Shown here one piece after another: positions 10,850 through 43,411 of a DNA stretch of 45,920 nt; positions within the stretch are counted from its first letter, which is position 1; the number at the start of each line of letters is the position of its first letter. A program made the translations under genes and the position numbers. The DNA is from Actinomycetota bacterium (GTDB taxonomy: Bacteria; Actinomycetota; Acidimicrobiia; Spongiisociales; UBA5794). The notes beneath the pieces were generated by a model. That model was not told where the DNA came from, made no database searches, and saw only the letters and a program-made list of their open reading frames with translations. Location: assembly GCA_030125685.1 (NCBI GenBank), contig JASJYA010000002.1, forward strand, positions 1 to 45,920, given 5' to 3'.

Positions 10850-10879
10850 TTGACACATCCCCTCTCCATCCGTTACGAT
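10850..10879 (+). promoter_or_regulatory. Candidate promoter of the tetR-bzd operon: TTGACA - 18 nt - TACGAT
   Basis: Read directly: TTGACA at 10850-10855 and TACGAT (TAnnnT) at 10874-10879, 34 nt upstream of the tetR ATG. Confidence 0.45.
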
Positions 10880-10886
10880 ACGACAG

Positions 10887-10900
10887 ACCGGTCAGTCGGT
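10887..10900 (+). promoter_or_regulatory. Operator-like site ACCGGTCAGTCGGT (ACCG-N6-CGGT), site 1 of a recurrent motif
   Basis: It lies immediately downstream of the -10 element, at about the predicted TSS. Near-identical copies occur at 35868-35881 (13/14) and, on the other strand, at 43699-43712 (12/14 to the 35868 copy). Confidence 0.45.
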
Positions 10901-10912
10901 AGGTAAACGCAG

Positions 10913-11548
10913 ATGACACGAGACGCCACAAGAACCCTTGCAAGATCAAAGGCCAGATCAGAGGCCACCTCGGCCAGGATCATCGCCGCGGCCAGAACGC
11001 TCTTCGTGGCCAAGAATTACGCGGATGTCACTACGGACATGATCGCCGGGGCGGCAGGCGTGACAAAGGGCGGTCTCTATCACCACTTCCCGAGCAAGGA
11101 ACAGCTCTACATCTCGATGATACTCGACGACCTCGATCGTAAACGTCGCCTTTTCGAACAGGCCGTCGCCGCACAGGGTAATTGCCGCGACCGTCTCGCC
11201 AAACTGACCAGGGACTTCCTTGAGCAGCCGGATGAGGAACGCAAACTGGCTCGCCTTGTGCGGCGCGACATCAACATATTCACCGGGGAAGAACGGGACC
11301 GTCTCGTGCGGGCCTACCAGCTCGCTCTGCCGGAGCAGATCGAGGCGATCATCAGAGAAGGGATCGAGGACGGCGAGCTCGCCCCCGGGGATCCTCGAAT
11401 CCTCTCGTGGTCGTTCGTCGCGCTCGTCGAGGTCGTGATCGGTCGGTACGCGAACCACGTTCTCGGAAGCACTGAGGCCCGTCTCGATCATGTTCTCGAA
11501 CTCTTCTTCGACGGAGCAGGCGCCAAACCGACTGGAGGGACAGAATGA
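10913..11548 (+). CDS. TetR/AcrR-family transcriptional regulator
   Basis: 211 aa. The N-terminal HTH is RIIAAARTLFVAKNYADVTTDMIAGAAGVTKGGLYHHFPSKEQLY. The stop overlaps the next start (ATGA). Confidence 0.9.
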   Translation: MTRDATRTLARSKARSEATSARIIAAARTLFVAKNYADVTTDMIAGAAGVTKGGLYHHFPSKEQLYISMILDDLDRKRRLFEQAVAAQGNCRDRLAKLTRDFLEQPDEERKLARLVRRDINIFTGEERDRLVRAYQLALPEQIEAIIREGIEDGELAPGDPRILSWSFVALVEVVIGRYANHVLGSTEARLDHVLELFFDGAGAKPTGGTE

Positions 11549-12720
11549 CACTGACGGCGACAAGAGTCTTCACTGAGTGGCACGACAAATCGCTCGATGA
11601 TGCACTTGGCGAGTGCAGGGACATGATCGAATCCCCCGATTTCGAAACGGTGAAACGTTGGCGTGACGAAGGCGGAAAGGTCGCTGGTCACTTCCAGGTG
11701 TACTTCCCTGAAGAGATCATCCACGCAGCAGGCATGCTCCCGTTCAAGGTGCGTGGCGCACCGATGGAGCCAAACCTGGCGGACTCCCATTTCGGCTCAT
11801 ATCTCTGTTCGATCCTCAAGACTTCACTCGAAATGGCGTTGAGCGACCAGGTTCGGATGGAGATGTTCGTGTCCCACCCCATCTGTGATGCGGCCAGGAA
11901 TCTCGCGGCGATCTGGGGCCGCAACACGGACTATCCGTGCCAGATCTTGTACCTCCCGCAGAATCCGAACTCCTCCGGGAGCGCGGACTATCTCGAACAC
12001 GAGTATGACAGGATCAGAAGGGTCACCGAGGAAGTGGCAGGCGTCGAGATCACCGATGAGGCTCTCCGTGAGTCGATCGTCGTCTTCAACGAGAACCGGA
12101 AGCTCATTCGTGAGTTGTACGCCATCAAGGCGAGCACGCCATGGCTTGTCGCCGCCGAGGACGCGTACGCAATGGTCGCCCTTGCAGGGATGATCCCGCG
12201 CGAAGAGCACAACGAACTTCTCACGACGCTCATCCCGCTGATCAAGGAACGCGATCTAAAACGAGAGGATCGCATCCGCGTCGTATTCGAAGGTGGGTTC
12301 TGTGAGCAGCCGCCTTTCGATCTCATCCGAATGCTCGGGCGAACATGCTACGTGGTTGACGACGACTTCATGATCGGCCTGCGCTACATCACATCCGATG
12401 TCCCGACAGAGGGCCTCCCGCTCAGACAGCTCGCCGAGTCGTACCTCGACCGCTCCTCCTACAGCCCTGTGCAGCACGATCTCCGTAAACCGAAAGAGGA
12501 CATGCTCATCGAGCGAATCCGAGGAGCAAGAGCAGACGCGGCAATCATCGCCGCAGCCAAGATGTGCGAGCCGGGCCTCGAGGAACAAGTCACCTATACC
12601 CATGCCCTCGACGACGAGGGAATCGCGTACTTCGTGAGCGAGTTTGAGGAGAACATGAGCTCCTTCGATCAACTCGAGCTGCAGGTCGAGACATTCGTCG
12701 AGAACCTGCTCTTTCAATGA
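11545..12720 (+). CDS. bzdN: Benzoyl-CoA reductase class I catalytic subunit, BcrC/BzdN (gamma) type (BcrC/BadD/HgdB family)
   Basis: 391 aa. 2-hydroxyacyl-CoA dehydratase/BCR family features are present (FPEEIIHAAGMLPF..., conserved Cys in HPICD and KMCEPG). It is first in a C-B-ATPase-ATPase gene order. The symbol is assigned from architecture and synteny only. Confidence 0.75.
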   Translation: MTLTATRVFTEWHDKSLDDALGECRDMIESPDFETVKRWRDEGGKVAGHFQVYFPEEIIHAAGMLPFKVRGAPMEPNLADSHFGSYLCSILKTSLEMALSDQVRMEMFVSHPICDAARNLAAIWGRNTDYPCQILYLPQNPNSSGSADYLEHEYDRIRRVTEEVAGVEITDEALRESIVVFNENRKLIRELYAIKASTPWLVAAEDAYAMVALAGMIPREEHNELLTTLIPLIKERDLKREDRIRVVFEGGFCEQPPFDLIRMLGRTCYVVDDDFMIGLRYITSDVPTEGLPLRQLAESYLDRSSYSPVQHDLRKPKEDMLIERIRGARADAAIIAAAKMCEPGLEEQVTYTHALDDEGIAYFVSEFEENMSSFDQLELQVETFVENLLFQ

Positions 12721-12748
12721 GGGGAAACGTCATCACAAGGAGGCGGAG

Positions 12749-14056
12749 ATGACCACGCTAGAAGACACGCAGGAACTGCTTGGGCGAGGGAATCGTGAAG
12801 GTGCTGCTCTGTTCAAGGAGTGGTTCGCCGAACTTGATGAGACGGCGAAGACCGGTGGACTCGCTGCCTACGTATTCGTCATGGGGAGTATCAACGAGAT
12901 ACTCAAGACATTCGACCTCCCCGTCGTGTTCCCGGAGATCAACTCGCTTCAGACCGCAGTGCGCCGGGTCGCCCACGAGTATCTCGAGGAGGCGGAGGAC
13001 TATGGGTATTCGCCAGACATCTGCGGATATGTCAAAGCCGACATCGGAACCCAGCTCCGAGGCGGTGAGCATCCGATGGCTCAGATCCCGAAGCCTGGCA
13101 TCACGGTGCTTACCAACGCATGCAACACGTATATCAAGTGGGCAGAGATATGGGAGCGCATGTACAGAACGCCCATGTTCACTATCGACATACCAGGCAC
13201 GCGCCAAGCCGGCGGACAGACATGGAGAGGAAACCCCGATTTCGAAGCTGACCGTAGGTACGTCGAGGTACAGCTGAGGGAACTCATCACCTTGTGCGAA
13301 GACGTCACAGGCAAGGACTTCGACATCGACAAGTTCCGCGAGGTCCTCACCTATGCCAACACCATGAGCCGCTCATGGAAGCGGATTCTCGAACTCAACC
13401 AAGCAAGACCCTCCCTGTTCAATGCGCTGACCGATGGCACGATCTACCTCGGTGTCGCCAACGGTCTCAGGGGTACCGAGGAGGGGGCTCGATACTTCGA
13501 ACGACTCGTCGAGGAGATGGAGTACAAGGCTGCCAACGGAATCGGCCAGACTATCGATGAGAAGTACCGCCTGCTGTTCGTCGGTGTTCCCTGCTACCCG
13601 ATCTTCCGCCGGTTCAACGAGCTCTTCACAGATTGGGGCGGCACGTTCGTCAATTCGACGTATCTCTGGTTCGCGTCCGGGGGCACGAATCGGGGTTTCG
13701 AGTACGACCTTGGCGACCCGCTGGCGAGTCTCGCAGAGGGCATACTCATCAGCGTCAGGGATGCGATGGATTCCATGTTCCACCAGAACGTTGCCCTGGC
13801 AGACATGGCGCAGAACTTCGATGTCGACGGCATCATCTATCACCCGATCAAGAGCTGCAGAACGGTCTCAACCGGCCTTGCAGACAGCAGGAAGCACATG
13901 ACCGAAGAACTCGGCATACCGAGTCTGTTCATGGAGTCGGACATGATGGATCGCAGGGTTGTCTCGGAGGCCCAAATGAAGAACCGTGTGGATGCCTTCT
14001 TCGAGGGCCTCGCAACCCGGCGTCAGCAAGCCCTGGCCGACCCAAAGGTGAGGTGA
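12749..14056 (+). CDS. bzdO: Benzoyl-CoA reductase class I catalytic subunit, BcrB/BzdO (beta) type
   Basis: 435 aa. This is the second HgdA/BcrB-family subunit ([10 protein letters not shown]..., [21 protein letters not shown]). A strong SD, AAGGAGG, lies upstream. Confidence 0.75.
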
Positions 14057-14061
14057 TCTCA

Positions 14062-14883
14062 GTGGCGTACGCAGCAGGAGTCGACGTTGGCTCCACCCAG
14101 ACCAAAGCAATCATCATCGACGAGGACGGCTCGATCGTCGGTCGCTCGCTCATCGACACTGGCGCCAATGTGGTCAAGGCAGCGGAGTCATCCTTTGTCA
14201 CCGCTCTCGCGGAAGGTGATATCGACGAGGAAGAAGTCGAGTACATCATCGGGACAGGCTACGGCCGGTATAGGGTGACATTCGGGAACAGCCAGGTGAC
14301 AGAGATCAGCTGTCACGGGCGGGGCGCCGTGCACTTGTTCCCAGAGACGAGAACCGTCGTCGACATGGGGGGCCAGGACACAAAAGCGATCGCAGTCAAC
14401 GCGAATGGAGAGATCACGGACTTCTGCATGAACGACAAATGTGCTGCAGGGACAGGTCGCTTCCTTGGAGCTGCCGCAGACGCCTTGGATATCCCGCTTG
14501 ACGACCTTGGTCCGGTCTCACTCAAGAGCACGAAACCGGTCAAGATCAGTACCACGTGCACCGTGTTCGCCGAGTCAGAGATACTCGCTTGGATCGGCAA
14601 GGGCAAGAAGATCGAGGATATCCTGTGGGGTGTCCACAAGTCGATTGCGGCCCGATCGGCCGGGCTGATGCGACGAGTCGGTATCAACGATGAGATCACC
14701 TTCACAGGAGGTGTCACTCGCAATGTTGGAATGGTCAAAGCGCTCGAGGATCGCCTCGATAAGCACCTGAACATCAGTGATGACTGCCACTACATGGGTG
14801 CCCTTGGCGCCGCCCTGTTCGCGCTCGACAGCGTGAAGGCTGGACGAGCTCCAGTCGGCAGAACGGCCGCGGTGACGTCGTGA
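14062..14883 (+). CDS. bzdP: Benzoyl-CoA reductase ATPase subunit (BcrAD/BadFG activase family), first copy
   Basis: 273 aa from the GTG at 14062 (SD AGGTGAGG). It has the ASKHA ATPase N-terminus [14 protein letters not shown] and the cluster-ligand motifs [12 protein letters not shown] and CTVFAESE. The symbol is by gene order only. Confidence 0.8.
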
Positions 14884-15707
14884 TCATCACAGCAGGACTG
14901 GACGTCGGATCCACCTACACCAAAGCAGTCATCCAGGGAGAAGACGGCGAGATCCTCGGTAAGGCCTTCGGTCCGACAGGGTTCAGACTCCGCGAGATGG
15001 CACGTTCGATCTACGCCGAGGCACTCACCAATGCCGACCTTCACGAGAAGGACATCGCCTATGTGATCGCAACAGGCGCGGGACGTCACCAGGTCGATTT
15101 CAAGGATCTCCATGTGACGGACCTCACCGCGAGCGCCCGAGGTGCCTGTTTCCTGTTCCCGGGCACGCGCACGATCCTCGACATCGGTGGTCAGACGATG
15201 AAGGCGAGCAGGGTGGATGAATCTGCACAGGTTCAGTCATTCAGGCTCAACGACAAATGTGCTGCCGGCACGGGGGCCTTCTTGGAGAAGACGGCGCGAT
15301 ACATGGGCTACAGCACCCAGGAGATCGGTTCGCTGATGACAACATCGAAGGAGTCCGTCCCGATTTCCGGCGTATGCGCGGTTTTTGCTGAGTCTGAGGT
15401 GATCAACCATCTCTCCATCGGCACATCGCCTGCGGACATCATGCAGGGAGCCATCGAGTCGCTCACAGGTCGTTCAGTGCAGCTCATGAAGCGGGTGAGG
15501 GCTGAGCCCGAGTACACGCTCGTCGGAGGGATCCTCAGGTTCGAGACGATGGGTCGATCTGTCAGTCAGGTGCTCGAAGCCGATGTCAACGTGCCGGATG
15601 AAGAGATGGTTCAGTATGTATCGGCGCTGGGCTGCGCGATTCTGGCTCGTCGACGGTTGGAGAAGCTTGGTGCTGAAGTCGATGTTGAGGCGGCGGTATC
15701 GGCGTGA
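14880..15707 (+). CDS. bzdQ: Benzoyl-CoA reductase ATPase subunit (BcrAD/BadFG family), second non-identical copy
   Basis: 275 aa with [25 protein letters not shown] and [13 protein letters not shown] overlap joins it to the preceding gene. The symbol is by gene order only. Confidence 0.8.
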
Positions 15708-15976
15708 ATACGACGGAGGAGACCGAGCCTGTTTACTGTTCTGAGGGCATCCAGATCCTGCGAGCTCCGGTCCTCGCTTCCGGCGGGTGGAAGCGGCGTA
15801 CCGTCACCGATCCGCAGCGAGTGGACGAACTTGTGGATCTCTACACAGACCTGGGGTACGAGACGATGACGACGGGACTCGATCCCTCAAGCTTCGGCAA
15901 GGCGTGCATGGCCTGCGCTGTCACCGCGTGCGCAACCTATGTCGCGTTGTTCACCCGCAGACCGGATGGCGGCTGA
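15704..15976 (+). CDS. Small (90 aa) Cys-containing protein of unknown function, translationally coupled to the reductase
   Basis: The GTG start overlaps the preceding TGA. Cys residues fall at 12, 68, 71 and 76 (C-X55-C-X2-C-X4-C). This is not a canonical CxxCxxCxxxCP ferredoxin, and no family was recognised. Confidence 0.5.
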   Translation: MNTTEETEPVYCSEGIQILRAPVLASGGWKRRTVTDPQRVDELVDLYTDLGYETMTTGLDPSSFGKACMACAVTACATYVALFTRRPDGG

Positions 15977-16073
15977 ACCGAACCGCCCCGGCAAGGGATG
16001 TCGTTGACTTATCCCCGGCTCGTCGAGACGGTCACCTTCGAGCGAACCTCACTCTCGTTGGTTTCCCATCACG

Positions 16074-16191
16074 TCTGCCGACAAGGGAGAGGAACCCCCA
16101 GTCCGAAGTGTGCTTCCCCGGCACGGTGCGTCGCAATCTGTATCGTGACTCGCCAATCCTGATCTGTCCCAGAGACCACACGGTGTCGGCA
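16074..16191 (+). promoter_or_regulatory. Possible structured 5' leader of the P-type ATPase gene, closed by a 9-bp helix
   Basis: CTGCCGACA (16074-16082) is exactly complementary to TGTCGGCAG (16183-16191), and the second arm ends 24 nt before the ATG. GGGAGAGG follows the 5' arm and AGAGACC precedes the 3' arm. No riboswitch class was securely recognised. Confidence 0.25.
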
Positions 16192-16215
16192 GGTTGGCGG
16201 TAGGCTCGAAAGGGT

Positions 16216-18690
16216 ATGACGACGCCATCGCCAATGGTCGGCTGTCCCCCGACGGGTCTGACCAGTGCCGAAGTGATGGAGCGGACCACGGCGGGGAAGG
16301 TGAACGTCGTCCTAGACACTCCCGCCCGTACCACGTGGGACATCGTTCGGGCCAACGTGGTCACACGGTTCAACATCCTGGTGGGTATCTTGCTCGCCGT
16401 CGTCCTCGTCGTTGTGCGCGAGCCGCGGGATGCTCTATTCGGAATCGTCCTTGTCTCGAACGCGGCCATCGGGATCGTTCAGGAGCTCCGCGCGAAGGCA
16501 ACGCTCGACCGCCTGACGCTTCTCACGGCGCCAACGGCGACTGTGACTCGCGACGGGCGCCGGCAGGAGGTTTCCGTCGAAGCTCTGGTCGAGGGGGACA
16601 TCATCGCTCTTGTGTCGGGGGATCAGGTGCCCGTGGACGGACCGGTACTGATGGGCCGCGGTCTCGAGGTCGACGAGTCGCTGTTGACGGGTGAATCCGA
16701 GTCTGTGTTCAAGCAGCCCGGCGACGTGTGTCTGTCCGGGTCGTTCGTCGTTGCGGGGAGCGGCTGGTTCCGCGCCGAACGTGTCGGCAACGAAGCATAC
16801 GCCGCCGTCCTGACGCGCGAAGCGAAGCAGTTCACATTGGTCCGCTCGGAACTGCGCAAGGGCATCGATTGGTTCCTGGGCGGGGTGTCCTGGGCGGTGG
16901 CGCCGGTCATTGCCCTGCTGGTGTGGAGTCAGTACCGGCTCGGATTCGGGTACAAAGAAGCACTCGGCTCCGCGGTGGCAGGCGCCATCGGCATGATCCC
17001 CCAGGGTCTCGTCCTCCTGACCTCGCTGGCATTTGCAGTCGGGGTGATCCGGCTCGGACGTCGCAACGTCCTCGTGCAGGAACTGTCTGCACTTGAAGGC
17101 CTCGCCCGGGTCGACACGGTGTGTTTCGACAAGACCGGCACCCTCACCCAGGGGGTGCTCGCGGTCAAAGAGGCCGTATGGCTCGGCGACATCGACCCGG
17201 GACCGGCTCTGGCCGCATTGGCAGCCGCTGAGCCCGTCCCGAATGCAACACTGCGGGCGATTGGAGATCGCTTCGGCGAGACGCCCGCTTGGACGCCCGA
17301 TGGCGCCATTCCGTTCTCGTCGGCGCGAAAGTGGAGTGCCGCCTCGTTCCACGAGTCCGGAACGTGGGTTCTCGGAGCGCCCGAGATCGTCGCTCCCAAC
17401 GACCCGAGCGTTGCCGAGCGATCCCGGGCCTACGCCCGATCCGGTCTTCGCGTTCTGCTGCTGGCCTGGACAGACCAGCCGTTGAACGGGGATCGTCTCG
17501 CGCGTCGGCTACGGCCATCCGCCATCATTACCCTCGGCGATCGGGTCCGCCCAGATGCGGCGGAGACCCTGCGTTTCTTCGCGGCGCAGGGGGTACGGGC
17601 CAAAGTCGTCTCGGGAGACCATCCAGACACGGTCGCCGCCATCGCCCGCGACGTCGGAGTGCCAAATTCCGGTGATGTAGTCGATGCCAGGCGACTCCCC
17701 GAGGATCCCGCCGCTTTTGCCGAGATCGTTGAACGTACAACGGTGTTCGGGCGGGTGACGCCCCATCAGAAACAGGCAATCGTGCACGCTCTCCAGTCGC
17801 GGGGTCACGTGGTTGCGATGACCGGGGACGGCGTTAACGACGTCCTTGCGCTCAAAGACGCCGATATCGGGATCGCCATCGGTGGGGGCAGCGCCGCGGC
17901 TCGCTCGGTCGCCCAACTGGTGTTGATCGACGGCGAGTTCAACAGGCTGCCCAACGTCGTGGCCGAGGGCCGCCGGGTGATAGCCAACATCGAGCTGGTC
18001 GCCAACCTCTTCGTCACCAAGACCGTGTACGCCATCTTTCTCGCCCTCGCGGTCGGCCTGACGGCTCAGCCGTTCCCGCTCCTTCCCCGCCACCTGACGT
18101 TGGTCGGGTCGATCACCATCGGCGTACCGGCTTTCTTCCTCGCTCTCGCTCCTAATTCACAGCGGGCCCGGCTGGGTTTCACCCGACGCGTGCTTGCCTT
18201 TGCGCTCCCGACCGGGTTGGCCGCCGGACTTGCGACCTGGGCGGCATACCAGCTCGCGATCGACGACGGCGTCACCCTCGGGGAGGCCAGAACAACTGCG
18301 ATGCTGGTACTCTCGGCGATCGGCATCTTCGCCCTCGGAATCGTGAGTCGGCCGCTGACACCATGGAAAAAGACCCTCATTGGATCGATGGTTGCCCTCC
18401 TCGTACTTGCGCTGGTCTCCACATCGGCGCAGGAATTCTTCGAGCTCGCGCTGCCCCGACCTGTCGTGCTGATGGCAGCGATCGGAGTGGTGGCGATCAC
18501 CGGCACGGTGATGATCTTCGTGCTGCGAGCGGTCGGCTGGATCAAGAAGGTTCCAATCTACTTGCACGATCATCCTCCGACAGTGAACGGCGCATGGCGT
18601 ATGTCGCGCAATCGGCTGATCCAGGCATGGAACAGCGAGGCCGTAGGCAGCCTGATCGACCGCTATCGTGCGTGGCGTCGGTCACGGTGA
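16216..18690 (+). CDS. Cation-translocating P-type ATPase (P2-like; resembles actinobacterial CtpE-type)
   Basis: 824 aa with TGES (LLTGESESV), the phosphorylation site CFDKTGTLTQG, the hinge MTGDGVNDVLALKDADIGIA and about 10 TM segments. Confidence 0.92.
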   Translation: MTTPSPMVGCPPTGLTSAEVMERTTAGKVNVVLDTPARTTWDIVRANVVTRFNILVGILLAVVLVVVREPRDALFGIVLVSNAAIGIVQELRAKATLDRLTLLTAPTATVTRDGRRQEVSVEALVEGDIIALVSGDQVPVDGPVLMGRGLEVDESLLTGESESVFKQPGDVCLSGSFVVAGSGWFRAERVGNEAYAAVLTREAKQFTLVRSELRKGIDWFLGGVSWAVAPVIALLVWSQYRLGFGYKEALGSAVAGAIGMIPQGLVLLTSLAFAVGVIRLGRRNVLVQELSALEGLARVDTVCFDKTGTLTQGVLAVKEAVWLGDIDPGPALAALAAAEPVPNATLRAIGDRFGETPAWTPDGAIPFSSARKWSAASFHESGTWVLGAPEIVAPNDPSVAERSRAYARSGLRVLLLAWTDQPLNGDRLARRLRPSAIITLGDRVRPDAAETLRFFAAQGVRAKVVSGDHPDTVAAIARDVGVPNSGDVVDARRLPEDPAAFAEIVERTTVFGRVTPHQKQAIVHALQSRGHVVAMTGDGVNDVLALKDADIGIAIGGGSAAARSVAQLVLIDGEFNRLPNVVAEGRRVIANIELVANLFVTKTVYAIFLALAVGLTAQPFPLLPRHLTLVGSITIGVPAFFLALAPNSQRARLGFTRRVLAFALPTGLAAGLATWAAYQLAIDDGVTLGEARTTAMLVLSAIGIFALGIVSRPLTPWKKTLIGSMVALLVLALVSTSAQEFFELALPRPVVLMAAIGVVAITGTVMIFVLRAVGWIKKVPIYLHDHPPTVNGAWRMSRNRLIQAWNSEAVGSLIDRYRAWRRSR

Positions 18691-18939
18691 AGGTTGCGTC
18701 GCTCGCCTCGGGTGACAACCCCAATTCGATGGGCCCGCTGCCAGCAAGATCAATGGTCGCCTCCCTCAGCAAACGTGACGTCTCGGGCTCACGCGCCGGG
18801 TCCATCATCATCCAGGCGCCGAGACAGGAGGAGCACCGTCACCATCACACCTGCGGGGCGGTCACCCGACCCTGCACCGTGGATGCCTGCCGGCACCCCC
18901 CACATTACGAAGCAGGAGGGCAGCCGCAGCGAATTCCGA

Positions 18940-19599
18940 TCAATCCGTTACCCGACACCAATAGTCACCGGCGGTGTTGCCCGAGAAGGTGTTCTCCGTC
19001 ACGGTGACGACACCCGGTTCCGGCCACGGGCAGACGCCGAAGTTCCACAGGTAGATGCCCTACAGGTTGTCGGTGGTCGTGTTTCCTGCCACAACGTACC
19101 CGGTCGGTCCCTGGCCGTCCTCATCGCTGAGCTGGAGCCCCGGTCCATGGTTACGTGACAAGATGTTGTTCGTCACGGTAACGTCGCGCCCGCCGTCGAC
19201 CCAGATCGCACCGTCCCAGTAGTCGCCGTTGGCATCGAGTTCATTGTCGGTAACGACATTGCCATCGACGAGCAGACCCACGCCGTCTTCGACCAGAATT
19301 CCCCCTCCCACGTTGTGGTGGATCCAGTTGTTGCGGATCACGGCGTCCCTGATCTCGAAGGTATCGATACCGGTGCCGAGGACGAAGCGCTCCTGTCGCG
19401 TCGGTGAGGGGCCGTTCTCGAATGCCTCGCTCTCCTCAACGACAAGACCGGTCACGCCGATGGCGGCGAACCCGAAACCTTCTCCGTCCAGATCCGAACT
19501 GATACTGGCGAAGCCATTGGAAACGAACCGGACGTCAAAGTCGGGACTGTGCCGCTCGACACATGAGGGAACCCCTGGGTCCATCGAGCCTGGGTCCAT
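18940..19599 (-). pseudogene. Remnant of a right-handed parallel beta-helix repeat protein (NosD/pectate-lyase-like), interrupted by an in-frame TAG
   Basis: Beta-helix repeats are present (IRNNWIHHNVGGGILVEDG, VDGNVVTDNE, VTVTNNILSRNHGPGLQL, VVAGNTTTDNL). The TAG at 19060-19062 is followed, in frame, by 39 more repeat-like codons (GIYLWNFGV...VTVTENTFSGNTAGDYW) up to the TGA at 18940. There is no signal peptide or credible N-terminus. A 13-bp direct repeat (ctgggtccatcga, copies 15 bp apart) gives MDPGSMDPG. Confidence 0.55.
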
Positions 19600-19696
19600 C
19601 GAACCGGCACAGCGTCGAATCCATACCCCGATGCCGCAATCGACTCGGAATCCGCGAGCACCGCGGGTGTCGCCCTTTTTCGAGGAAGCTTGTCTC

Positions 19697-21001
19697 TTAC
19701 CAAGGCCTCCGGGCGATGGCCTCGATCGGCTTCATACCCTGTCCGAATCGCGCGATGGCCTCGCGGTTTTTCGTGAGCTCGCTGTAGGCAATAAAGTGAA
19801 CGTCCAGCAGATTGGCCACTCGACTGAAGGCAGGACGCTTCAACTGTTCCCAGATGTCAGCCTCGCGGGCGTCCGGGGCGACCAGGAATAGCGACAACTC
19901 ATCGTGTTCCAGACCGAGCGCAAGGTCCGACATTCGTAGGATCCCGGAGTAGATCGATGTCGTATGCTCGACTTCGAAGGCTGCCACCACGCGATCGGCG
20001 GTCGAATCGACCCAGAGCACGTCGATCAACCGGATTGCGTCGAATGACGGGTTCTTCTTCAAGCTTTCCGGGAGCCCATCAAGGCAGCCATCAGACAGAC
20101 GCCCGTCGCGGTAGGGTCGGTTGACGTCGTTGCTTGCGATCCACACGTCGAATCCCACCGCGAACCCCAGATCCCGCAGCCAACCCTGAATCTCAGTGTG
20201 GGTGTGGTCCTGGTCCTGCGCTGCCTGAATTGCTCGGTCGGCGCGGTCGGACTCGGCACGAACCTCGGCGAGATCCGTCTCCCATCGCGCAAGGGCTGCG
20301 TCATCCGACTCGCGGGGCGGAGCCGGGTACCTCCCGGAGCCGACATCGAACAGGAGGCCCGCAATCGCTCCAAGGTCGTTGGAAAAAAGGTCTCTGTACT
20401 TCGAGTTCAACTCCAGAATCCCGCGACGCATTGCCAGATACCCGTCCCACCGACCCAACTTCACTTTCGCCCCGGTTACGGCGTTGTAGCCCTTGACGAT
20501 TTTGGTGTTCGAGGGAGGAACCACGGTTGGGTGAAGAAAGTAAAGGATATTGGCGGCGGCGGGCCCGAGACCTTTGATTGCTACGCGGTCCAAGGTCTGG
20601 ATGGCTTCAACGATCTCCGACTCCTCACCGGAACAGCCGACGCACGTCTGGAGGAAACGGCCGAAAGCGAGCTGGTTCTCGGGGCTCTCGTAGATGTCGG
20701 GGATACGTAGCTTCGGCTTCCAGAGGAAGGCGTGGTCGGCGCCTCGGAAGATCTGCCTCTGTTCCGCGATGGACTTTACGACCGTTTCGAGCGAAGAACC
20801 CTTGTACACGTTTCCGAAGGTACCCGCCTCGATCTCTGCTACTACCACCGAAATGCCCTGTCGAATGGAGCGGAAGTTTTTCAGCCGTTCTTCCCAGAGG
20901 AACCAGGTCCGGTAGGTGCCCAACGGGTCCTCCCGCCAACGAGTCAGGAGACGCCGAAACGGATCGATCGTAGAAAGCTGCGGCTCAGGCGCGATATTCA
21001 A
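19697..21001 (-). CDS. Orphan protein with a C-terminal PD-(D/E)xK-like (restriction-endonuclease-fold) domain; N-terminal domain unassigned
   Basis: 434 aa. TTG start at 21001 behind a strong SD (GGAGGAGGAAG). The C-terminal pattern is HTEIQGWLRDLGFAVGFDVWIASND...IDVLWVD...VVAAFEVEHTTSIYSGILRMSDL...LFLVAPD. I recall this arrangement from uncharacterised restriction-endonuclease-like proteins. There is no methyltransferase or partner gene nearby. Confidence 0.5.
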   Translation of the reverse strand: MNIAPEPQLSTIDPFRRLLTRWREDPLGTYRTWFLWEERLKNFRSIRQGISVVVAEIEAGTFGNVYKGSSLETVVKSIAEQRQIFRGADHAFLWKPKLRIPDIYESPENQLAFGRFLQTCVGCSGEESEIVEAIQTLDRVAIKGLGPAAANILYFLHPTVVPPSNTKIVKGYNAVTGAKVKLGRWDGYLAMRRGILELNSKYRDLFSNDLGAIAGLLFDVGSGRYPAPPRESDDAALARWETDLAEVRAESDRADRAIQAAQDQDHTHTEIQGWLRDLGFAVGFDVWIASNDVNRPYRDGRLSDGCLDGLPESLKKNPSFDAIRLIDVLWVDSTADRVVAAFEVEHTTSIYSGILRMSDLALGLEHDELSLFLVAPDAREADIWEQLKRPAFSRVANLLDVHFIAYSELTKNREAIARFGQGMKPIEAIARRPW

Positions 21002-21083: not shown

Positions 21084-21848
21084 CTAGGCGTTCCTCCATT
21101 CGGGGGGGCGTTTCTCGATGAACGCCGTGATGCCCTCGACACCGTCGTGGGTCGCGAGCAGCTCTTCGAGGTAGAGGCGCTCTGTCTCCGCGAGGCGCTG
21201 TTCGACCTCGACTCGCCTCGGTTCTCTGATGGCCCTGGTTGCCAAACGAAGCGACAGCGCCGACCGAGGAACGAAGTGCGTGTTGACGAACGACTCGAGT
21301 GCCGTATCCAGGTCTCCATCGAGCGCGAGCGCGTTGACGATACCCATCCGTCTGGCTTCCTTGGCCGTCAGGCTGCGGCCTGTCAGGAGCACGTCCTCAG
21401 CAACTCTGCCGGTGAGAAGAGCGGTTGCTGCGGGTGGAAAGACGCCGAGCTGAATCTCGGGGCAGGCCAGCGTCGCTCCCTCCTCTGCGATGACGATGCC
21501 GCAGGCGAGCACGAGTTCGAGTCCACCTCCGAGACAGCTGCCTTGAACTCCAGCAACTGTCGGGTAGGGGAAACCGACGAGGGCCCGGATCACTGCGCCA
21601 AGCGCGGCAAGCATCTCTGGTGCCTTGTCAGGGAGATGCTCTTCGACACTGGCGCCAAACGAGAAGTGTCTGCCTGCTCCGCGCAGAACGAGGACCTTGC
21701 CATCGTCTGCCTCGGCAGCAGTCTCGATGGCCTCGAGAAGCTGGCCACACAGGGCGATATCGATGACATTCCCGGGGGCCTTGTCGAGTGTGACCGTGTG
21801 AACCGCGCCATCGGGCGAGGCTTCGTGATGAACCCAGGTGCTGGTCAT
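21084..21848 (-). CDS. dch: Enoyl-CoA hydratase/crotonase; probably cyclohexa-1,5-diene-1-carbonyl-CoA hydratase
   Basis: 254 aa with a crotonase fold (GAGRHFSFGASVEEH...GGGLELVLAC). It overlaps oah by 4 nt. The Dch assignment rests on context plus the HFSFGASV.EH motif as I remember it. Confidence 0.6.
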   Translation of the reverse strand: MTSTWVHHEASPDGAVHTVTLDKAPGNVIDIALCGQLLEAIETAAEADDGKVLVLRGAGRHFSFGASVEEHLPDKAPEMLAALGAVIRALVGFPYPTVAGVQGSCLGGGLELVLACGIVIAEEGATLACPEIQLGVFPPAATALLTGRVAEDVLLTGRSLTAKEARRMGIVNALALDGDLDTALESFVNTHFVPRSALSLRLATRAIREPRRVEVEQRLAETERLYLEELLATHDGVEGITAFIEKRPPEWRNA

Positions 21849-22945
21849 TCGTCTGACTTGTACTGTGGTGACACTGCCTCAATGAGATCGTCGCCCCATG
21901 TTTCACCTGCAGCGAGCCTTCGCCTGAGGTCGATGAAGTCAACCTCTCTTCCGACCTCTCTTGAACCTCTGTGGAACGCCTGGAAGCCTGCCTTGGCCTC
22001 GGTCATCATGTTGAGCGAGAGCCATGCCCTGTTCGATTCCTTGTTCTTGTCCCAATGCTCGAGCTTCTTTTTGCGAACGGACTCTGTTGTCTTCAGCGTG
22101 CAATCGGGCATCGTGTACAGGATCTTGGTGAGCATCGCATCGACACCGGCGTCGAGCATCGAGAAGTCTGTGACGCCGGACCTCAACATGGCCTTTGCGG
22201 CCACGAGCTCGTCGCCCTCCTTCGGCTTGCCGTGCACGATCTTGCCCCACTCATCCAGGTAGCGGTCCGTGATCACGAGGGGATTGGGAATGAATGCTCC
22301 GTCGACTTTCAGCACGGGAAAGATGTCGTTGACAAGGCCGAGGCGCAGTGCCTCATGGGCGCTCCAGGGCTCGCACAGGACACAGCTTGCCATTGCTTCG
22401 CCCCATCCGACGTACAGGTCGAGGAAGTCTGTTGAACCGCCATCCGGAGCGGAGCCGTGTTTCGGTCCTGCCTGGCCGAACCGTGCAAGGTCGGACGCAA
22501 GCGAGAAGTCGCATGCCATCCCGATCTCCTGCCCACCGCCGATTCGCATGCCGTTCACCCTGTTGACCACCGGTTTGTCACACATGAGAATCGCCGAGAC
22601 CATGTCGTTGAACAGGCGCATGTACTGGCGATACTCGCCCGGCCTGCCCGCGTAGTACTCCGAGTACTCCTCGGTGTTTCCTCCCGTGCAGAACGACCGA
22701 TCACCCGTCCCGGTGAAGACAACAGCCACCGCGGCGCGATCGACGGAGGCACGTCGGAAGGCCAGGATGACTTCTTTGACCGCCTTGGTCGTGTAGGAGT
22801 TGAGCTGCTCCGGATTGTCCAGGGTGATCCACACCGCGTGAAGTCCCGCAACAGGTTCGCCGCTGGTGTCGAGGATTCGTCGCTCCTCGTAGAGGATCTC
22901 CGTATATTCGTGGTCGGGGACCAGGTCGTGGTTTACAAACTTCAC
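21845..22945 (-). CDS. oah: 6-oxocyclohex-1-ene-1-carbonyl-CoA hydrolase (ring-cleaving; Oah/BamA)
   Basis: 366 aa, an extended crotonase with NGMRIGGGQEIGMACDF..FGQAGPKHGSAPDGGSTDFL and a long C-terminal domain, as in Oah/BamA. Confidence 0.85.
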   Translation of the reverse strand: MKFVNHDLVPDHEYTEILYEERRILDTSGEPVAGLHAVWITLDNPEQLNSYTTKAVKEVILAFRRASVDRAAVAVVFTGTGDRSFCTGGNTEEYSEYYAGRPGEYRQYMRLFNDMVSAILMCDKPVVNRVNGMRIGGGQEIGMACDFSLASDLARFGQAGPKHGSAPDGGSTDFLDLYVGWGEAMASCVLCEPWSAHEALRLGLVNDIFPVLKVDGAFIPNPLVITDRYLDEWGKIVHGKPKEGDELVAAKAMLRSGVTDFSMLDAGVDAMLTKILYTMPDCTLKTTESVRKKKLEHWDKNKESNRAWLSLNMMTEAKAGFQAFHRGSREVGREVDFIDLRRRLAAGETWGDDLIEAVSPQYKSDE

Positions 22946-22958
22946 AGCGTTTTACCTT

Positions 22959-24023
22959 TCATGGGATGAGGATCGTTCGTTTGGCGCTTCCACGCCGGTG
23001 TGCTTCTTCGAGAGCCTGATCGATGTTGGCCATCGGGGCCTTGCGTATGAATGGCGCAAGATCGACCTTTCCTGACGTGACCAACTGAATGGCCTCCGGG
23101 TATCGCTCGGGAGGGCAGCCCCAACTCCCGAAAGCAGTCGCGTCAAATGCCATCAGGTTCGACAGCCTGATGGTCACCTTCTCCATCGTGAATCCGACCA
23201 CCGCGAGGATTGCGGCCGGACCGAGCATTCCGTACGCAGTCTCCTGACCCATGGGAGTTCCGGAGCACTCGAAGATCTTCCAGCCAGTACGCGATATGTC
23301 GGACGATGCCGCGTACTCCCTGACCGAGTCTCGGATATCGCGAGCTGAGCGGTCTCTTGCGTTGACGGTCGCGGATGCTCCGTGTTCACGAAGCAGAGAG
23401 AGGCGGTCGTCGTCGATGTCGACTGCGAGCACGGTGGCTCCGCTCGCGGCAGCGATTTGCACGGCGTAGGCACCGATGCCGCCTGCTCCGACCACCACCA
23501 CGAAGTCACCCTCGCGCACCTCGGCACGTCTGACAGCTTGGAGCGGTGTCGTGACGGCATCGGCGATGACGCACAGGTCGGCGAGCTCGTACCGGTCGGG
23601 GAGGTTCTGGATGGGGAAGAGGCCGGCGGCCGGTACGGTCACATGCGTGGCAAAACCGCCATCGAGATCGTTCCCCGGCATCTTCTGGTTGACACAAACA
23701 TTGCCCCTGCCGGCGTTGCACAGGTCGCAGTGCCCGCACGCAATGACTGCAGCAACGAGGACATCCCTTCCGATCCAGGATTCAGCGCCCTCTCCTGCTT
23801 CTGTGACCCGGCCACTGATCTCGTGGCCGAGCACGAGGGGGAGCTTCGAGCGGGTTCTGACCGTACCGTCGATGAATCCGAGGTCGGTGTGGCAGAGGCC
23901 GCAGCCGGCCACCTCGACGAGTACTTCGTCGGCCTGGGGTGTTCGCCCTGCGTCGGGGAACCGCTCGAGCGGCTGGCCGGGCGCCACCATGCGCCAGGAG
24001 TATCTGTTGGTACGGGGTTTCAT
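22959..24023 (-). CDS. had: Zn-dependent MDR dehydrogenase; probably 6-hydroxycyclohex-1-ene-1-carbonyl-CoA dehydrogenase
   Basis: 354 aa. CGLCHTDLGF...LGHEISG, WKIFECSGT, VVGFTMEKVTIRLSNLMAF and the C-terminal RTILIP resemble Thauera Had as I recall it. It lies directly upstream of oah. Confidence 0.75.
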   Translation of the reverse strand: MKPRTNRYSWRMVAPGQPLERFPDAGRTPQADEVLVEVAGCGLCHTDLGFIDGTVRTRSKLPLVLGHEISGRVTEAGEGAESWIGRDVLVAAVIACGHCDLCNAGRGNVCVNQKMPGNDLDGGFATHVTVPAAGLFPIQNLPDRYELADLCVIADAVTTPLQAVRRAEVREGDFVVVVGAGGIGAYAVQIAAASGATVLAVDIDDDRLSLLREHGASATVNARDRSARDIRDSVREYAASSDISRTGWKIFECSGTPMGQETAYGMLGPAAILAVVGFTMEKVTIRLSNLMAFDATAFGSWGCPPERYPEAIQLVTSGKVDLAPFIRKAPMANIDQALEEAHRRGSAKRTILIP

Positions 24024-24281
24024 CCCGGCTCCTATCTCGTGTTCCGGTCACGCATTATGAACCACCAGGTAGCTGAACGCCCTTGCGGTGCGCCCTGGGC
24101 TTGTTGGAGGCTCAATTGGCTTTCAATCGGTTGTCTTTCGGCGTATTGTGCACATGGTAGGCATCCTTGAACTCGGCGGGCGAGGTCGGAATTCGGACGT
24201 CGTGCTGTGTCACGCGTACTGCGAAGCACGATATATTCTTGCTCTCTCGTCCAAGGACCGCGAAGCGCAGCGAGCAATCTG

Positions 24282-25250
24282 TCAGCCAAGCTCCTCAAGG
24301 GCACGCCTTACGAAGACCGGGATCATTCGCGTCCGATAGCGGGAGGTGAGGTCTGTGTTGTTGAGGGGTCTGGCGAGCTTTCTCGCGGCCTCAGCAGCCT
24401 CAGCGATCGTTTCCGCGTTGTATGTCCGCCCCACCAGCACTTCCTCGGAAGTTGGAACCCGCAGAGGGGCGGAAGCGACTGCGCCGAGAACGATGCGGGC
24501 CTCGGTGCAGATGTCGGCGTCATCCAGTCGAACAGCAGCGGCGACTCCCAGGATGGGGAAGTCGATACTCCCCCGACGCCGCAGTTTGCGGTAGGTGGCT
24601 CGCAGACCGGCGTGGGGTCCGATAACCACCTCGGTGAGGATCTCCTCAGTTGTCTTGGTGAGGTAGGCCATGCCGTCGTTCCGGTACAGCTGCTCGATGG
24701 GGATGGAGCGCCGCCCGTCGGGACCGATGAGCTGCACCTCGGCGCCCAATGCGACCATCACCGGAGCGAGGTCGGAGCTGCTTACGGCCCAGCAGTCCTT
24801 CTTCGCCGGAGCGACCCAGCACATCTCCCCACCGGCTTTGAGGCACGGCTCGGCGGCTTGGCGCCAAGTGTCGGGAACGTTCAACCAGTCGCAGCGCGTG
24901 TCAACGCAGAGGTTTCCTCCCACCGTGCCCTGGTTGCGGATCTGCGGAGAAGCCACTGCCCCGGCTGCTTCCCGCAACACCTTGGGAAGCCGTGAATCTT
25001 CGACAACCGTCGCCAGTGTCGTGAGCGCGGCAATCCGGATGGTCCCATCGCTCTCGACACGAATCCCGACCAGGTCGGCGACCCGACGAAGGGAGACGAT
25101 GGTTCGAGCTGTCGGGTACTGACGGCGCTTGAGATTCGGAACAAGGTCGCTGCCGCCGGCAGCGAGGAGAGCGCCATCCTCAGCGAGCAGCGCTACTGCT
25201 TCCTCGAGCGTCGACGGCGCCTCATAGCGCAAGGGCGGGAGTCTTAGCAT
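24282..25250 (-). CDS. hcrB: FAD-binding medium subunit of a xanthine-dehydrogenase-family enzyme, HcrB type, with an extra Cys-rich (4Fe-4S) loop
   Basis: 322 aa. FAD_binding_5 pattern (AGGSDLVPNLK...GTVGGNL) followed by the insert CVDTRCDWLNVPDTWRQAAEPCLKAGGEMCWVAPAKKDC. The Cys residues at 120/136/144/153 are spaced X15, X7 and X8. Confidence 0.7.
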   Translation of the reverse strand: MLRLPPLRYEAPSTLEEAVALLAEDGALLAAGGSDLVPNLKRRQYPTARTIVSLRRVADLVGIRVESDGTIRIAALTTLATVVEDSRLPKVLREAAGAVASPQIRNQGTVGGNLCVDTRCDWLNVPDTWRQAAEPCLKAGGEMCWVAPAKKDCWAVSSSDLAPVMVALGAEVQLIGPDGRRSIPIEQLYRNDGMAYLTKTTEEILTEVVIGPHAGLRATYRKLRRRGSIDFPILGVAAAVRLDDADICTEARIVLGAVASAPLRVPTSEEVLVGRTYNAETIAEAAEAARKLARPLNNTDLTSRYRTRMIPVFVRRALEELG

Positions 25251-27625: not shown

Positions 27626-28086
27626 TGATTCTCCTCAGTCACAGCGGCGACTGCGCTGAGAATGGACAGGTATCCGGTGCATCGGCACATGTTCCCCGCG
27701 ATCGCCTCCGCGATTGTCTCCTCGGACGGGTTGGGGTCACGGTCGAGCAGTGCTTTCGCGGTGAGGATCATTGCGGGTGTGCAGTACCCACACTGTGCCG
27801 CGCCGTGTTCGCCGAAGGAGCGTTGCAGAGGGTGGGGCTCGGTCATCGAGCCGATCCCTTCGATGGTGACAATCTCGCAATCGGTTGCGTTGACGGTCAG
27901 CGTGAGGCAGGAGAGGATCGGCACGCCGTCGATGAGCACCGTGCAGGCGCCACACTCCCCCAGCTCACAGCCGTGTTTGGTTCCGGTAAGCCCGAGGTCT
28001 TCACGCACGGTTTCGAGCAGGGTGCGTTGGGGAGGGACGAAGAGGCGCCTGGTCGCGCCGTTCACTGTTAGTGTCACCGGTTCCAT
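27622..28086 (-). CDS. hcrC: [2Fe-2S]x2 small subunit of a xanthine-dehydrogenase-family enzyme (HcrC-like)
   Basis: 154 aa from the ATG at 28086 (SD GGGAGAG 4 nt upstream), with GCELGECGACTVLIDG and QCGYCTPAMIL...CRCTGY. The longer ORF to 28269 would overlap boxB; an alternative ATG lies at 28113. Confidence 0.8.
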   Translation of the reverse strand: MEPVTLTVNGATRRLFVPPQRTLLETVREDLGLTGTKHGCELGECGACTVLIDGVPILSCLTLTVNATDCEIVTIEGIGSMTEPHPLQRSFGEHGAAQCGYCTPAMILTAKALLDRDPNPSEETIAEAIAGNMCRCTGYLSILSAVAAVTEENQ

Positions 28087-28177
28087 CAACTCTCCCGAAA
28101 TGCGTTGCGTCATCGTAGCGGAGCGGAACCTGGCGCCCGGCGAGTACAGATCGGCGACACAAACCAGAGCGGCAGCC

Positions 28178-29647: not shown

Positions 29648-29662
29648 GGTTGGAGCTCTCCC

Positions 29663-31312: not shown

Positions 31313-31395
31313 GGCTGCGATCTTACCAGCGGGCAAGTCCGACGTTGTTGGGTGGGTGAGCAGATCTTGGGTGACCGCGCCAGGGGGAGTGTTGC

Positions 31396-31422
31396 TATGA
31401 TGCCGAACGGCATTACCGGCAT
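31396..31422 (+). promoter_or_regulatory. Candidate -10 element (TGcTATGAT) plus a direct repeat CGGCAT-tac-CGGCAT in the boxC/ligase divergent region
   Basis: Read directly: TATGAT at 31396-31401; CGGCAT at 31408-31413 and 31417-31422, 27 nt upstream of the ligase ATG. No convincing -35 element was found. Confidence 0.3.
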
Positions 31423-31448
31423 GCAGAGCAGACGGAAACGGAGATGCG

Positions 31449-41833: not shown

Positions 41834-41853
41834 CTGCTCCTTTGACGCTGTTG

Positions 41854-42996: not shown

Positions 42997-43411
42997 TGTC
43001 AGCCTCCGCGGGTCGGAATCGGTAGCCGGTGAGTGCGTTTCCGTCCTCGTCCTTACCGAAGGGTTCAAGCACAAGCGTCATCGGCATGCCGATCGCTATC
43101 TCATCGAACTCGACACCGACAATCTGGCCCATGATGCGGACGCCTTCGGGGAAATCGACGTATCCGAGGGCGTAGGGAACCTCGAAGGCCGGTGTCGACT
43201 GCCTTACTATCGTGTAGGTGTAGAGGGTCCCCTCGGTCGAGAACTTGACGGTTTCGAGGTCCTGACCCAGACACCCGGCGCAGGCTTGCCGTATTGGGAA
43301 GAAGTGGGCGCCGCACGATCGGCATTTGCTGCCGAGGAGGTTCCCCGTTCCATCCGATCGGACCTCGAGCTCACCCGGTCGGAACGACTCTCCGATCACA
43401 GTTGTGGTCAA
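42989..43411 (-). CDS. DUF35 OB-fold / Zn-ribbon protein (thiolase partner)
   Basis: About 140 aa from the TTG at 43411 (SD GAAGGAGGAG). It has the Zn-ribbon CRSCGAHFFPIRQACAGC followed by an OB fold, and overlaps the thiolase start by 8 nt. The start is uncertain. Confidence 0.7.
   Translation of the reverse strand: MTTTVIGESFRPGELEVRSDGTGNLLGSKCRSCGAHFFPIRQACAGCLGQDLETVKFSTEGTLYTYTIVRQSTPAFEVPYALGYVDFPEGVRIMGQIVGVEFDEIAIGMPMTLVLEPFGKDEDGNALTGYRFRPAEADND

Follow-up and report, generated by a model that had tools for sequence, protein, structure and literature searches.

The stretch analysed here, contig JASJYA010000002.1 of assembly GCA_030125685.1 (positions 1 to 45,920 of the forward strand, 45,920 nt in all and hereafter the window), contains a six-gene operon that, judged by sequence comparison, is for an ATP-dependent class I benzoyl-CoA reductase of the MBR type (MbdONQP), and not of the Bzd type. 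The host lineage according to GTDB is Actinomycetota; Acidimicrobiia; Spongiisociales; UBA5794. We think it likely that the operon specifies a functional MBR-type benzoyl- or aryl-CoA reductase under an MbdR-like TetR switch, and that it lies in an island for benzoate and 4-hydroxybenzoate utilization in a metagenome-assembled genome (MAG) of an uncultured marine member of the Acidimicrobiia. The operon has the following features.

10850-10879, + strand: predicted sigma-70-type promoter, with TTGACA and TACGAT separated by an 18-nt spacer and 10 of 12 consensus matches.
10881-10898, no strand assigned: predicted TetR operator CGACAGACCGGTCAGTCG, an 18-bp palindrome of the form xxAC-N10-GTxx, palindromic at 16 of 18 positions and starting 2 nt after the -10 hexamer.
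10913-11548, + strand: tetR, first gene of the operon, TetR-family repressor of 211 aa with TetR_N and TetR_C_24 domains.
11545-12720, + strand: N, MbdN-like gamma subunit, HGD-D family, 391 aa.
12749-14056, + strand: O, MbdO-like beta subunit, HGD-D family, 435 aa.
14062-14883, + strand: Q, MbdQ-like ATPase alpha subunit, BcrAD/BadFG family, 273 aa, GTG start.
14880-15707, + strand: P, MbdP-like ATPase delta subunit, BcrAD/BadFG family, 275 aa, GTG start.
15704-15976, + strand: ORF90, an open reading frame (ORF) for a conserved 90-aa protein, GTG start, coupled to the delta-subunit gene.

The ORF listing and a direct reading of the junctions give six co-directional genes in the order tetR-N-O-Q-P-ORF90, with overlaps at three of the five junctions: the tetR stop and N start share an ATGA at 11545-11548, and there are GTGA overlaps between Q and P (14880-14883) and between P and ORF90 (15704-15707). 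An AAGGAGG ribosome-binding site lies directly before the O gene, and no intrinsic terminator is predicted after 15976. Pfam and NCBIfam place HGD-D on N and O and BcrAD_BadFG on Q and P (E values of 1e-50 to 1e-78), and all of the ORFs in the operon are intact, with their catalytic and cluster residues kept. The first-pass annotation of this DNA had described the ATGA overlap of tetR with the next gene, tight coupling throughout, and subunits of 391 and 435 aa followed by two ATPases of about 273 aa, each with NDKCAAGTG and C(T/A)VFAESE; our coordinates agree, with ATPases of 273 and 275 aa and the motifs at residues 124-132 and from residue 166. It left out the sixth gene, the 90-aa ORF at 15704-15976, which lies within the region that it covered.

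Three types of class I reductase (BCR, MBR and BZD) have been distinguished and their architecture and mechanism described, with the BCR and MBR types forming permanent tetramers and BzdNO sharing only 24-25% of its residues with MBR (Fuchs et al. 2025, PMC11971306). We assigned the type from hidden Markov model (HMM) and pairwise scores, using NCBIfam models and PDB sequences. All four subunits find their best PDB matches, one-to-one, in MbdONQP (PDB 9g87, 9gai; Thauera chlorobenzoica / Aromatoleum sp. CIB), i.e. O in MbdO (9g87_A, E 5.8e-161, 539 bits, 54% identity), N in MbdN (9g87_B, E 1.2e-157, 528 bits), Q in MbdQ (9gai_D, E 2e-127, 427 bits) and P in MbdP (9gai_C, E 1.9e-87, 296 bits), whereas no non-Mbd chain of the PDB exceeds 223 bits with any of the four. 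For O and N the second-best PDB matches are subunits of hydroxyisocaproyl-CoA dehydratase (125-138 bits), followed by BzdO and BzdN (8s02; 93 and 109 bits, E of about 1e-25 and 1e-30). The class I four-subunit architecture was thus correctly recognized in the first-pass annotation, as two different HGD-D and two different BcrAD/BadFG subunits are encoded together, but its Bzd assignment has to be replaced, and the short ATPases that it took as a Bzd mark are equally short in MBR (269 and 273 aa).

The Bzd models of NCBIfam score far below their cut-offs (TIGR03190, 103 vs 454 bits; TIGR03191, 99 vs 449; TIGR03192, 182 vs 380), and so do the BCR models TIGR02259 to TIGR02263 (243, 199, 218 and 151 bits vs 421, 487, 578 and 313). 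A comparison of the bzd and bcr models had been proposed as a check on the subtype, and the low scores with the Bzd models speak against bzd. The BCR type (Thauera aromatica BcrCBAD, Rhodopseudomonas BadDEFG) is likewise an ATP-dependent heterotetramer of the same family, and BcrB and BcrC are the best-scoring models for O (199 bits) and N (243 bits), but these scores are far under the cut-offs of 487 and 421 bits, and there is no long A subunit (about 430 aa) in the window, where the ATPases are of about 274 aa. The BcrA model (432 positions) aligns only over 226-432, and the long BcrA-type N-terminal part is absent from both window ATPases; TIGR00241 recognizes the two of them (Q 264 bits, P 205 bits, cut-off 125). 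The same pattern of NCBIfam scores is given by genuine MbdO, and by N, Q and P of a proteobacterial cluster whose O is 78% identical to MbdO. Homologues carry the NCBI name '2-hydroxyacyl-CoA dehydratase family protein' because NCBIfam has no MBR model, and since the NCBI pipeline names MBR genes in this way, surveys probably under-count them.

The cysteine pattern in N and O is also that of MbdONQP. All seven cysteines of N are shared with MbdN, and only three of the BzdN cysteine positions are kept; the six-cysteine double-cubane [8Fe-9S] cluster of BzdN (PMC11971306) is for this reason not expected in the window N, which is predicted to carry an electron-relay [4Fe-4S] cluster. O is predicted to be the substrate-binding and catalytic [4Fe-4S] subunit, and its Cys92, Cys125 and Cys370 align (phmmer) with the cluster ligands Cys95, Cys128 and Cys380 of BzdO (PMC11971306), a protein of the same enzyme family and reaction. 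Glu63, in a conserved FPE motif, probably corresponds to BzdO Glu65, on the basis of motif and position, as the phmmer alignment starts at BzdO residue 75. Tyr128 aligns with BzdO His131, the proposed acid/base group. This position (codon at about 13130-13132), three residues beyond the second cysteine of the cluster, holds Tyr (CNTYIKW) in 114 of 120 close homologues; the solved MbdO and the proteobacterial proteins nearest to it have Phe there. It may determine specificity or mechanism. Q and P, which are 39% identical to each other, both have Cys127 (in NDKC) and Cys166 (in CTVFAESE in Q), which we take to be the positions of the bridging-cluster ligands of HgdC.

The product of ORF90 is very probably a dedicated accessory partner of MBR-type reductases. 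In 65 of 68 assessable loci, which represent at least six phyla, a homologue is the next gene after P, usually with translational coupling; the same holds for two more genomes found by searching with the small protein, and for the proteobacterial cluster mentioned above (L084:6350-6628). A profile search returned 1026 homologues (952 clusters at 50% identity), all annotated as 'hypothetical', and ORF90 has no Pfam or NCBIfam family and no PDB sequence match. The motif outline is GW-RR ... LY-LG(F/Y)E ... CxxC ... YTR, with invariant residues G28, W29, R32, E42, Y47, C68, C71, T84 and R85. In the AlphaFold2 model (pLDDT 72) the protein folds as a beta-alpha-beta-alpha-beta unit, and the CxxC lies where a helix begins; Foldseek finds no significant neighbour for it, the best being nucleoside diphosphate kinases (E 0.14, TM-score of about 0.35), which have a generic beta-alpha-beta fold. 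A ferredoxin of the usual kind was considered and rejected, as only two cysteines are invariant: a third is missing in Acidobacteriota and Chloroflexota, and a fourth, C12, is present only in Acidimicrobiia.

Candidate roles for the ORF90 product are those of an accessory subunit, a redox partner, or a protection or repair factor, and its linkage to the reductase looks not to have been described previously. More tentatively, and with some doubt, it could be an undescribed dedicated fifth component of MBR-type reductases, redox-active or metal-binding, that delivers electrons to the enzyme, protects it or repairs it; this would, if true, help to explain a clade without a linked ferredoxin gene. 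Together with the Tyr/Phe/His difference next to the catalytic cluster, the linked CxxC protein offers a lead for enzymologists. In two members of the family a hemerythrin HHE domain is fused to an ORF90-type protein (L055:13020-13862 and P0411). Separate hemerythrin (HHE di-iron) genes are found beside the module in nine more loci from several phyla (L050:13306-13878, L077:5367-5939, L076:13086-13538, L020, L023, L025, L027, L066 and L075), and there is no hemerythrin gene in the window.

The tetR gene is co-transcribed with the reductase genes, as the first-pass annotation had supposed, being the first gene and overlapping N. Such a regulator is less of a departure from known systems than was thought, as the TetR-family protein MbdR is the repressor of an MBR-type cluster, with 3-methylbenzoyl-CoA as inducer and an operator, ATAC-N10-GTAT, that spans the transcription start (PMC4424350); the difference is that mbdR forms a separate operon (PMC4424350). 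The style of the window operon is not leaderless either, since transcription from the predicted TTGACA-18-TACGAT promoter would give tetR a 5' leader of about 25 nt, in which GGTAGG precedes the ATG. We compared the regions upstream of tetR in 38 related loci, many of which have a TTGACA and a TAnnnT-like hexamer at the matching place, and in 29 of which there is a site with no more than four mismatches to the 16-mer core of the window operator; conservation does not extend to the flanks. A strict palindrome test (at least 14 of 18 positions) is passed by only 10 of 39 upstream regions, and the operator is conserved as a sequence more than as a perfect palindrome; in a random control, 14 of 2000 windows of 165 nt had a site that palindromic.

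The predicted window operator and that of MbdR (PDB 4uds) are both 18-bp palindromes with 4-nt outer half-sites 10 nt apart, placed over the transcription start (predicted in the window), and they differ in the half-sites themselves, which are CGAC/GTCG in the window. Non-actinobacterial loci have ATACCGACCGGTCGGTAT or near variants as the operator, which fits the published MbdR site, and related loci carry exactly ATAC-N10-GTAT. This shared geometry looks not to have been described previously. About 40 of 80 related loci encode a TetR homologue (51-82% identity) ahead of the reductase genes, and we infer that the window protein is an autoregulated repressor responding to an aromatic acyl-CoA.

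A motif scan of small ORFs for CxxCxxCxxxC(P/G/A/S) finds no 2x[4Fe-4S] ferredoxin ORF in the 45.9-kb window, which agrees with the first-pass annotation, and the same scan finds no small ferredoxin ORF within 10 kb of the reductase genes in the 80 related loci, so that the absence of a linked ferredoxin appears to be a property of the whole clade. In this the window differs from the CIB operon, which has been described as MbdMNOPQWXYZ; MbdM is presumably its ferredoxin, and we assume that genes for 2-oxoglutarate:ferredoxin oxidoreductase (KOR) are linked to it in CIB. KOR is present in about 85% of the genomes of the Acidimicrobiia order UBA5794 (PMC12008989), and because a KOR-based tricarboxylic acid cycle is reported in related Acidimicrobiia, the simplest donor would be an unlinked housekeeping ferredoxin reduced by KOR.

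To our knowledge, work on class I benzoyl-CoA reductases has been confined to a few Proteobacteria that denitrify or are phototrophic, and the characterized MbdONQP are from Betaproteobacteria. A scan with one genome per species shows relatives of the window reductase in at least 564 species-level genomes, spread over Acidimicrobiia, Planctomycetota, Acidobacteriota, Chloroflexota, Gemmatimonadota and some Proteobacteria. Of the matches listed, the best 30 (79-92% identity) are almost all from Acidimicrobiia, and those at 71-78% come from Planctomycetota, Acidobacteriota, Chloroflexota, Gemmatimonadota and a few Gammaproteobacteria. The relatives are all MAGs, many of them from marine sediment, trench or vent samples. 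Gene order is N-O-Q-P in all 80 loci whose neighbourhoods were compared, as in the window, whereas it is O-N-Q-P in the proteobacterial cluster, which shares with the window the small CxxC-protein gene after the delta-subunit gene.

The host is thus a non-proteobacterial, high-GC one, as the first-pass annotation had suggested, the contig being in MAGs labelled Actinomycetota with its closest copies (80-92% identity) in MAGs of Acidimicrobiia. The rarity that it implied does not hold at this breadth of distribution, and a 2025 survey of UBA5794 already reported bcrBC together with boxBC in marine-sediment members (PMC12008989); a class I reductase in Actinomycetota is real, but neither unique nor unnoticed. 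What emerges for the MBR type is a mobile module of five genes, which in about half of the 80 loci brings along a TetR repressor and operator of its own and which has spread through Acidimicrobiia, Planctomycetota, Acidobacteriota, Chloroflexota and Gemmatimonadota of sediments and vents, and this bears on estimates of who degrades aromatic compounds in low-oxygen sediments. The known chemistry is unchanged, and the finding is solid but incremental.

Downstream of the operon is an island of genes for aromatic compounds, with the following members.

21084-21848, - strand: Dch-like dienoyl-CoA hydratase (TIGR03189 is the best match, 213 bits, cut-off 292).
21845-22945, - strand: Oah (TIGR03200, 551 bits, cut-off 464).
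22959-24023, - strand: Had (TIGR03201, 450 bits, cut-off 339).
24282-25250, - strand: 4-hydroxybenzoyl-CoA-reductase-like beta subunit (best match is the 4-hydroxybenzoyl-CoA reductase beta model, below cut-off).
25250-27625, - strand: 4-hydroxybenzoyl-CoA-reductase-like alpha subunit (best match is the 4-hydroxybenzoyl-CoA reductase alpha model, below cut-off).
27622 to about 28101, - strand: 4-hydroxybenzoyl-CoA-reductase-like gamma subunit (top match NF041020, glyceraldehyde dehydrogenase gamma, 173.5 bits; TIGR03193 second, 164.6 bits).
28178-29647, - strand: BoxB (TIGR03225, 835 bits, above the equivalog cut-off).
29663-31591, - strand: BoxC (TIGR03222, 855 bits, above the equivalog cut-off), with its true start probably about 90 codons downstream of the first start codon of the ORF.
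31449-33017, + strand: benzoate-CoA ligase family gene, divergent from boxC (TIGR02262, 603 bits, cut-off 375).

The island also has a PaaK-like ligase and an ABC uptake system, both likewise divergent from boxC, and an extra alcohol dehydrogenase. This setting supports the assignment of the operon to benzoyl-CoA breakdown. Given this gene content, benzoyl-CoA would be made here and dearomatized either reductively (by the reductase operon and Dch, Had and Oah) or with oxygen (by BoxBC), and facultative anaerobes such as Aromatoleum use both routes. Oah and Had are above their cut-offs with the Dch-like gene adjacent, and homologues of all three are neighbours of the reductase genes in many Acidimicrobiia, Acidobacteriota and Gemmatimonadota loci. 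The 4-hydroxybenzoyl-CoA-reductase-like enzyme is less securely named, with all three subunits scoring below their NCBIfam cut-offs.

Several observations weigh against a functional MBR-type benzoyl-CoA reductase operon with an MbdR-like switch. None of the four subunits passes an NCBIfam benzoyl-CoA reductase equivalog cut-off; genuine MbdO misses these cut-offs too, so that the low scores argue little. At 54% identity to MbdO the substrate range is not readable from the sequence. The Dch-like hydratase is below its own cut-off, and a ferredoxin gene to serve as electron donor was found neither in the window nor within 10 kb in the 80 loci. TetR matches MbdR only at E 1.4e-8, rank 19 among PDB TetRs, and is no closer to it than to many other TetRs, among them the acyl-CoA-sensing FadR, DarR and FasR, so the shared operator geometry could be coincidental. 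Oxygen inactivates enzymes of the class I benzoyl-CoA reductase kind, and the box genes show that the organism also meets oxygen.

Of the other explanations, an MBR-like enzyme that acts on a different substrate (methyl-, halo- or hydroxy-benzoyl-CoA, or a partly reduced bicyclic carboxyl-CoA) is unlikely. The closest characterized enzyme is named for 3-methylbenzoyl-CoA, and the MBR enzyme is reportedly called catalytically versatile in the title of a 2018 article by Tiedt et al. that is cited in PMC11971306. The degree of identity to MbdO leaves room for a change in specificity, the cluster-adjacent Tyr128 replaces the Phe of proteobacterial MBR relatives, and the PaaK-like ligase, extra alcohol dehydrogenase and 4-hydroxybenzoyl-CoA-reductase-like enzyme of the island could be read in the same way. 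However, the benzoate-CoA ligase, Oah and Had pass cut-offs trained on the benzoyl-CoA pathway, boxBC in the same island act on benzoyl-CoA itself, and the simplest view is that the enzyme has a broad specificity, with benzoyl-CoA among its substrates. A 2-hydroxyacyl-CoA dehydratase, or another non-dearomatizing member of this superfamily with a duplicated activator, is very unlikely. HadBC/HadI and HgdAB/HgdC share with the window proteins the superfamily and an activator-type ATPase fold with Cys127 and Cys166, and the HGD-D Pfam domain, the NCBI names of the homologues and the second-best standing of the HadB/HadC models and structures (125-168 bits, of which 125-138 for the structures) all point that way. 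Those systems have one activator gene, use ATP catalytically and occur in a context of amino-acid fermentation, whereas the window has two distinct ATPase genes, one the orthologue of MbdQ and one that of MbdP, in a context of aromatic acyl-CoA catabolism; the matches to MbdO and MbdN are about 400 bits stronger, and the NCBI name reflects only the lack of an MBR model, genuine MbdO being itself below the BcrB cut-off.

A Bzd-type enzyme like Aromatoleum/Azoarcus BzdNOPQ can hardly be credited: the short ATPases (about 273 aa) and moderate BzdQ scores (182 and 125 bits) that recommend it are set against BzdO/N matches of 93 and 109 bits vs 539 and 528 for MbdO/N, TIGR03191 and TIGR03190 at 99 and 103 bits with cut-offs of 449 and 454, the low identity of about 25% between the BZD and MBR types (PMC11971306), an N subunit that lacks at least three BzdN cysteine positions and with them the double-cubane site, and Tyr in place of BzdO His131. 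The three BzdO cluster cysteines do align with cysteines of the window O, and the FPE-motif glutamate is at the position expected for Glu65. We find it equally hard to believe that the operon is an inactive or mis-binned acquisition, be it as a relic that an aerobe acquired by horizontal transfer or because the contig is in truth non-actinobacterial. Unrelated phyla share the module at 73-78% identity, together with its promoter and operator, which means that it does move horizontally; horizontal transfer of box genes has been inferred in UBA5794 (PMC12008989), and MAGs labelled 'Kiloniellaceae' and 'Armatimonadetes' carry copies that are 82-86% identical to that of the window. But the ORFs are intact with conserved catalytic and cluster residues, nine contigs carry the identical O protein, including three that belong to separate NCBI MAG assemblies of a single series and whose neighbouring genes are identical too (GCA_030125705.1, GCA_030125865.1 and GCA_030125725.1), more than 25 Acidimicrobiia MAGs carry the module with conserved synteny, and G+C content is uniform across the window (0.575-0.65).

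An MBR-type reductase in this setting would be expected to work as follows. By homology, the alpha and delta ATPases would pair up, each contributing Cys127 and Cys166 to a [4Fe-4S] cluster that bridges them. The resulting dimer would accept an electron from reduced ferredoxin, whose gene would lie elsewhere in the genome, and ATP hydrolysis would drive electron transfer at very low potential from this dimer to the gamma-beta catalytic dimer. Benzoyl-CoA or substituted analogues would then be reduced to cyclohexa-1,5-diene-1-carbonyl-CoA at the beta-subunit [4Fe-4S] cluster (Cys92, Cys125 and Cys370, with Glu63 nearby), after which Dch, Had and Oah, encoded 5 kb downstream, would hydrate, oxidize and open the ring. 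Benzoyl-CoA would be supplied by the benzoate-CoA ligase and, probably, by the 4-hydroxybenzoyl-CoA-reductase-like enzyme, and BoxBC would provide an oxygen-dependent route from it. TetR would probably occupy the palindrome that overlaps the transcription start until an aromatic acyl-CoA releases it, in the way that 3-methylbenzoyl-CoA releases MbdR.

Two of the related loci have MAG labels at odds with their sequences, L024 (labelled Kiloniellaceae) and L015 (labelled Armatimonadetes); both have the Acidimicrobiia-type operator beside the O copies noted above, which suggests mis-binning or mislabelling rather than recent transfer. Loci L070 and L071 (JASMMN010000024.1, 9249-30529 and 32656-53936, reversed) are two inverted copies of the module on one Phycisphaerales contig with identical match positions and identities, reflecting a large inverted duplication or else an artefact of assembly.

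Within the island, boxC-boxB, the 4-hydroxybenzoyl-CoA-reductase-like trio and had-oah-dch lie on one strand (21084-31591), and from boxC to dch the successive junctions are 15 nt, about 77 nt, an overlap, an overlap, 258 nt, 13 nt and an overlap. No boxA was seen in the window, from which its ferredoxin-type motif is absent, and no boxD-like aldehyde dehydrogenase was seen there. The beta subunit at 24282-25250 (- strand) has a Cys-rich insert, NLC..TRC..EPC..EMC..KDC, which we take to resemble the additional [4Fe-4S] loop by which true 4-hydroxybenzoyl-CoA reductases are distinguished, and just upstream of the island (5344 to about 7600) there are moeA, moaC and a MoCF_biosynth gene, which fit a molybdenum-dependent enzyme of this kind. 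After the ABC transporter, at 40694-43074 (- strand), are genes for a thiolase-domain protein, whose top matches include BbsB-like and lipid-transfer-type models, all below cut-off, and a PrpF/4-oxalomesaconate-tautomerase-like protein; these may belong to a lower (pimelyl-CoA-type) pathway or to another aromatic route. In the Acidimicrobiia MAG locus L004 (13228-13997) the end of the reductase operon is about 770 nt from a convergent dch, and compared with it the window has about 5 kb extra between the operon and dch (15977-21001), containing a P-type ATPase (16216-18690), a small NosD/beta-helix protein and a 434-aa NmeDI_C-domain protein (19697-21001).

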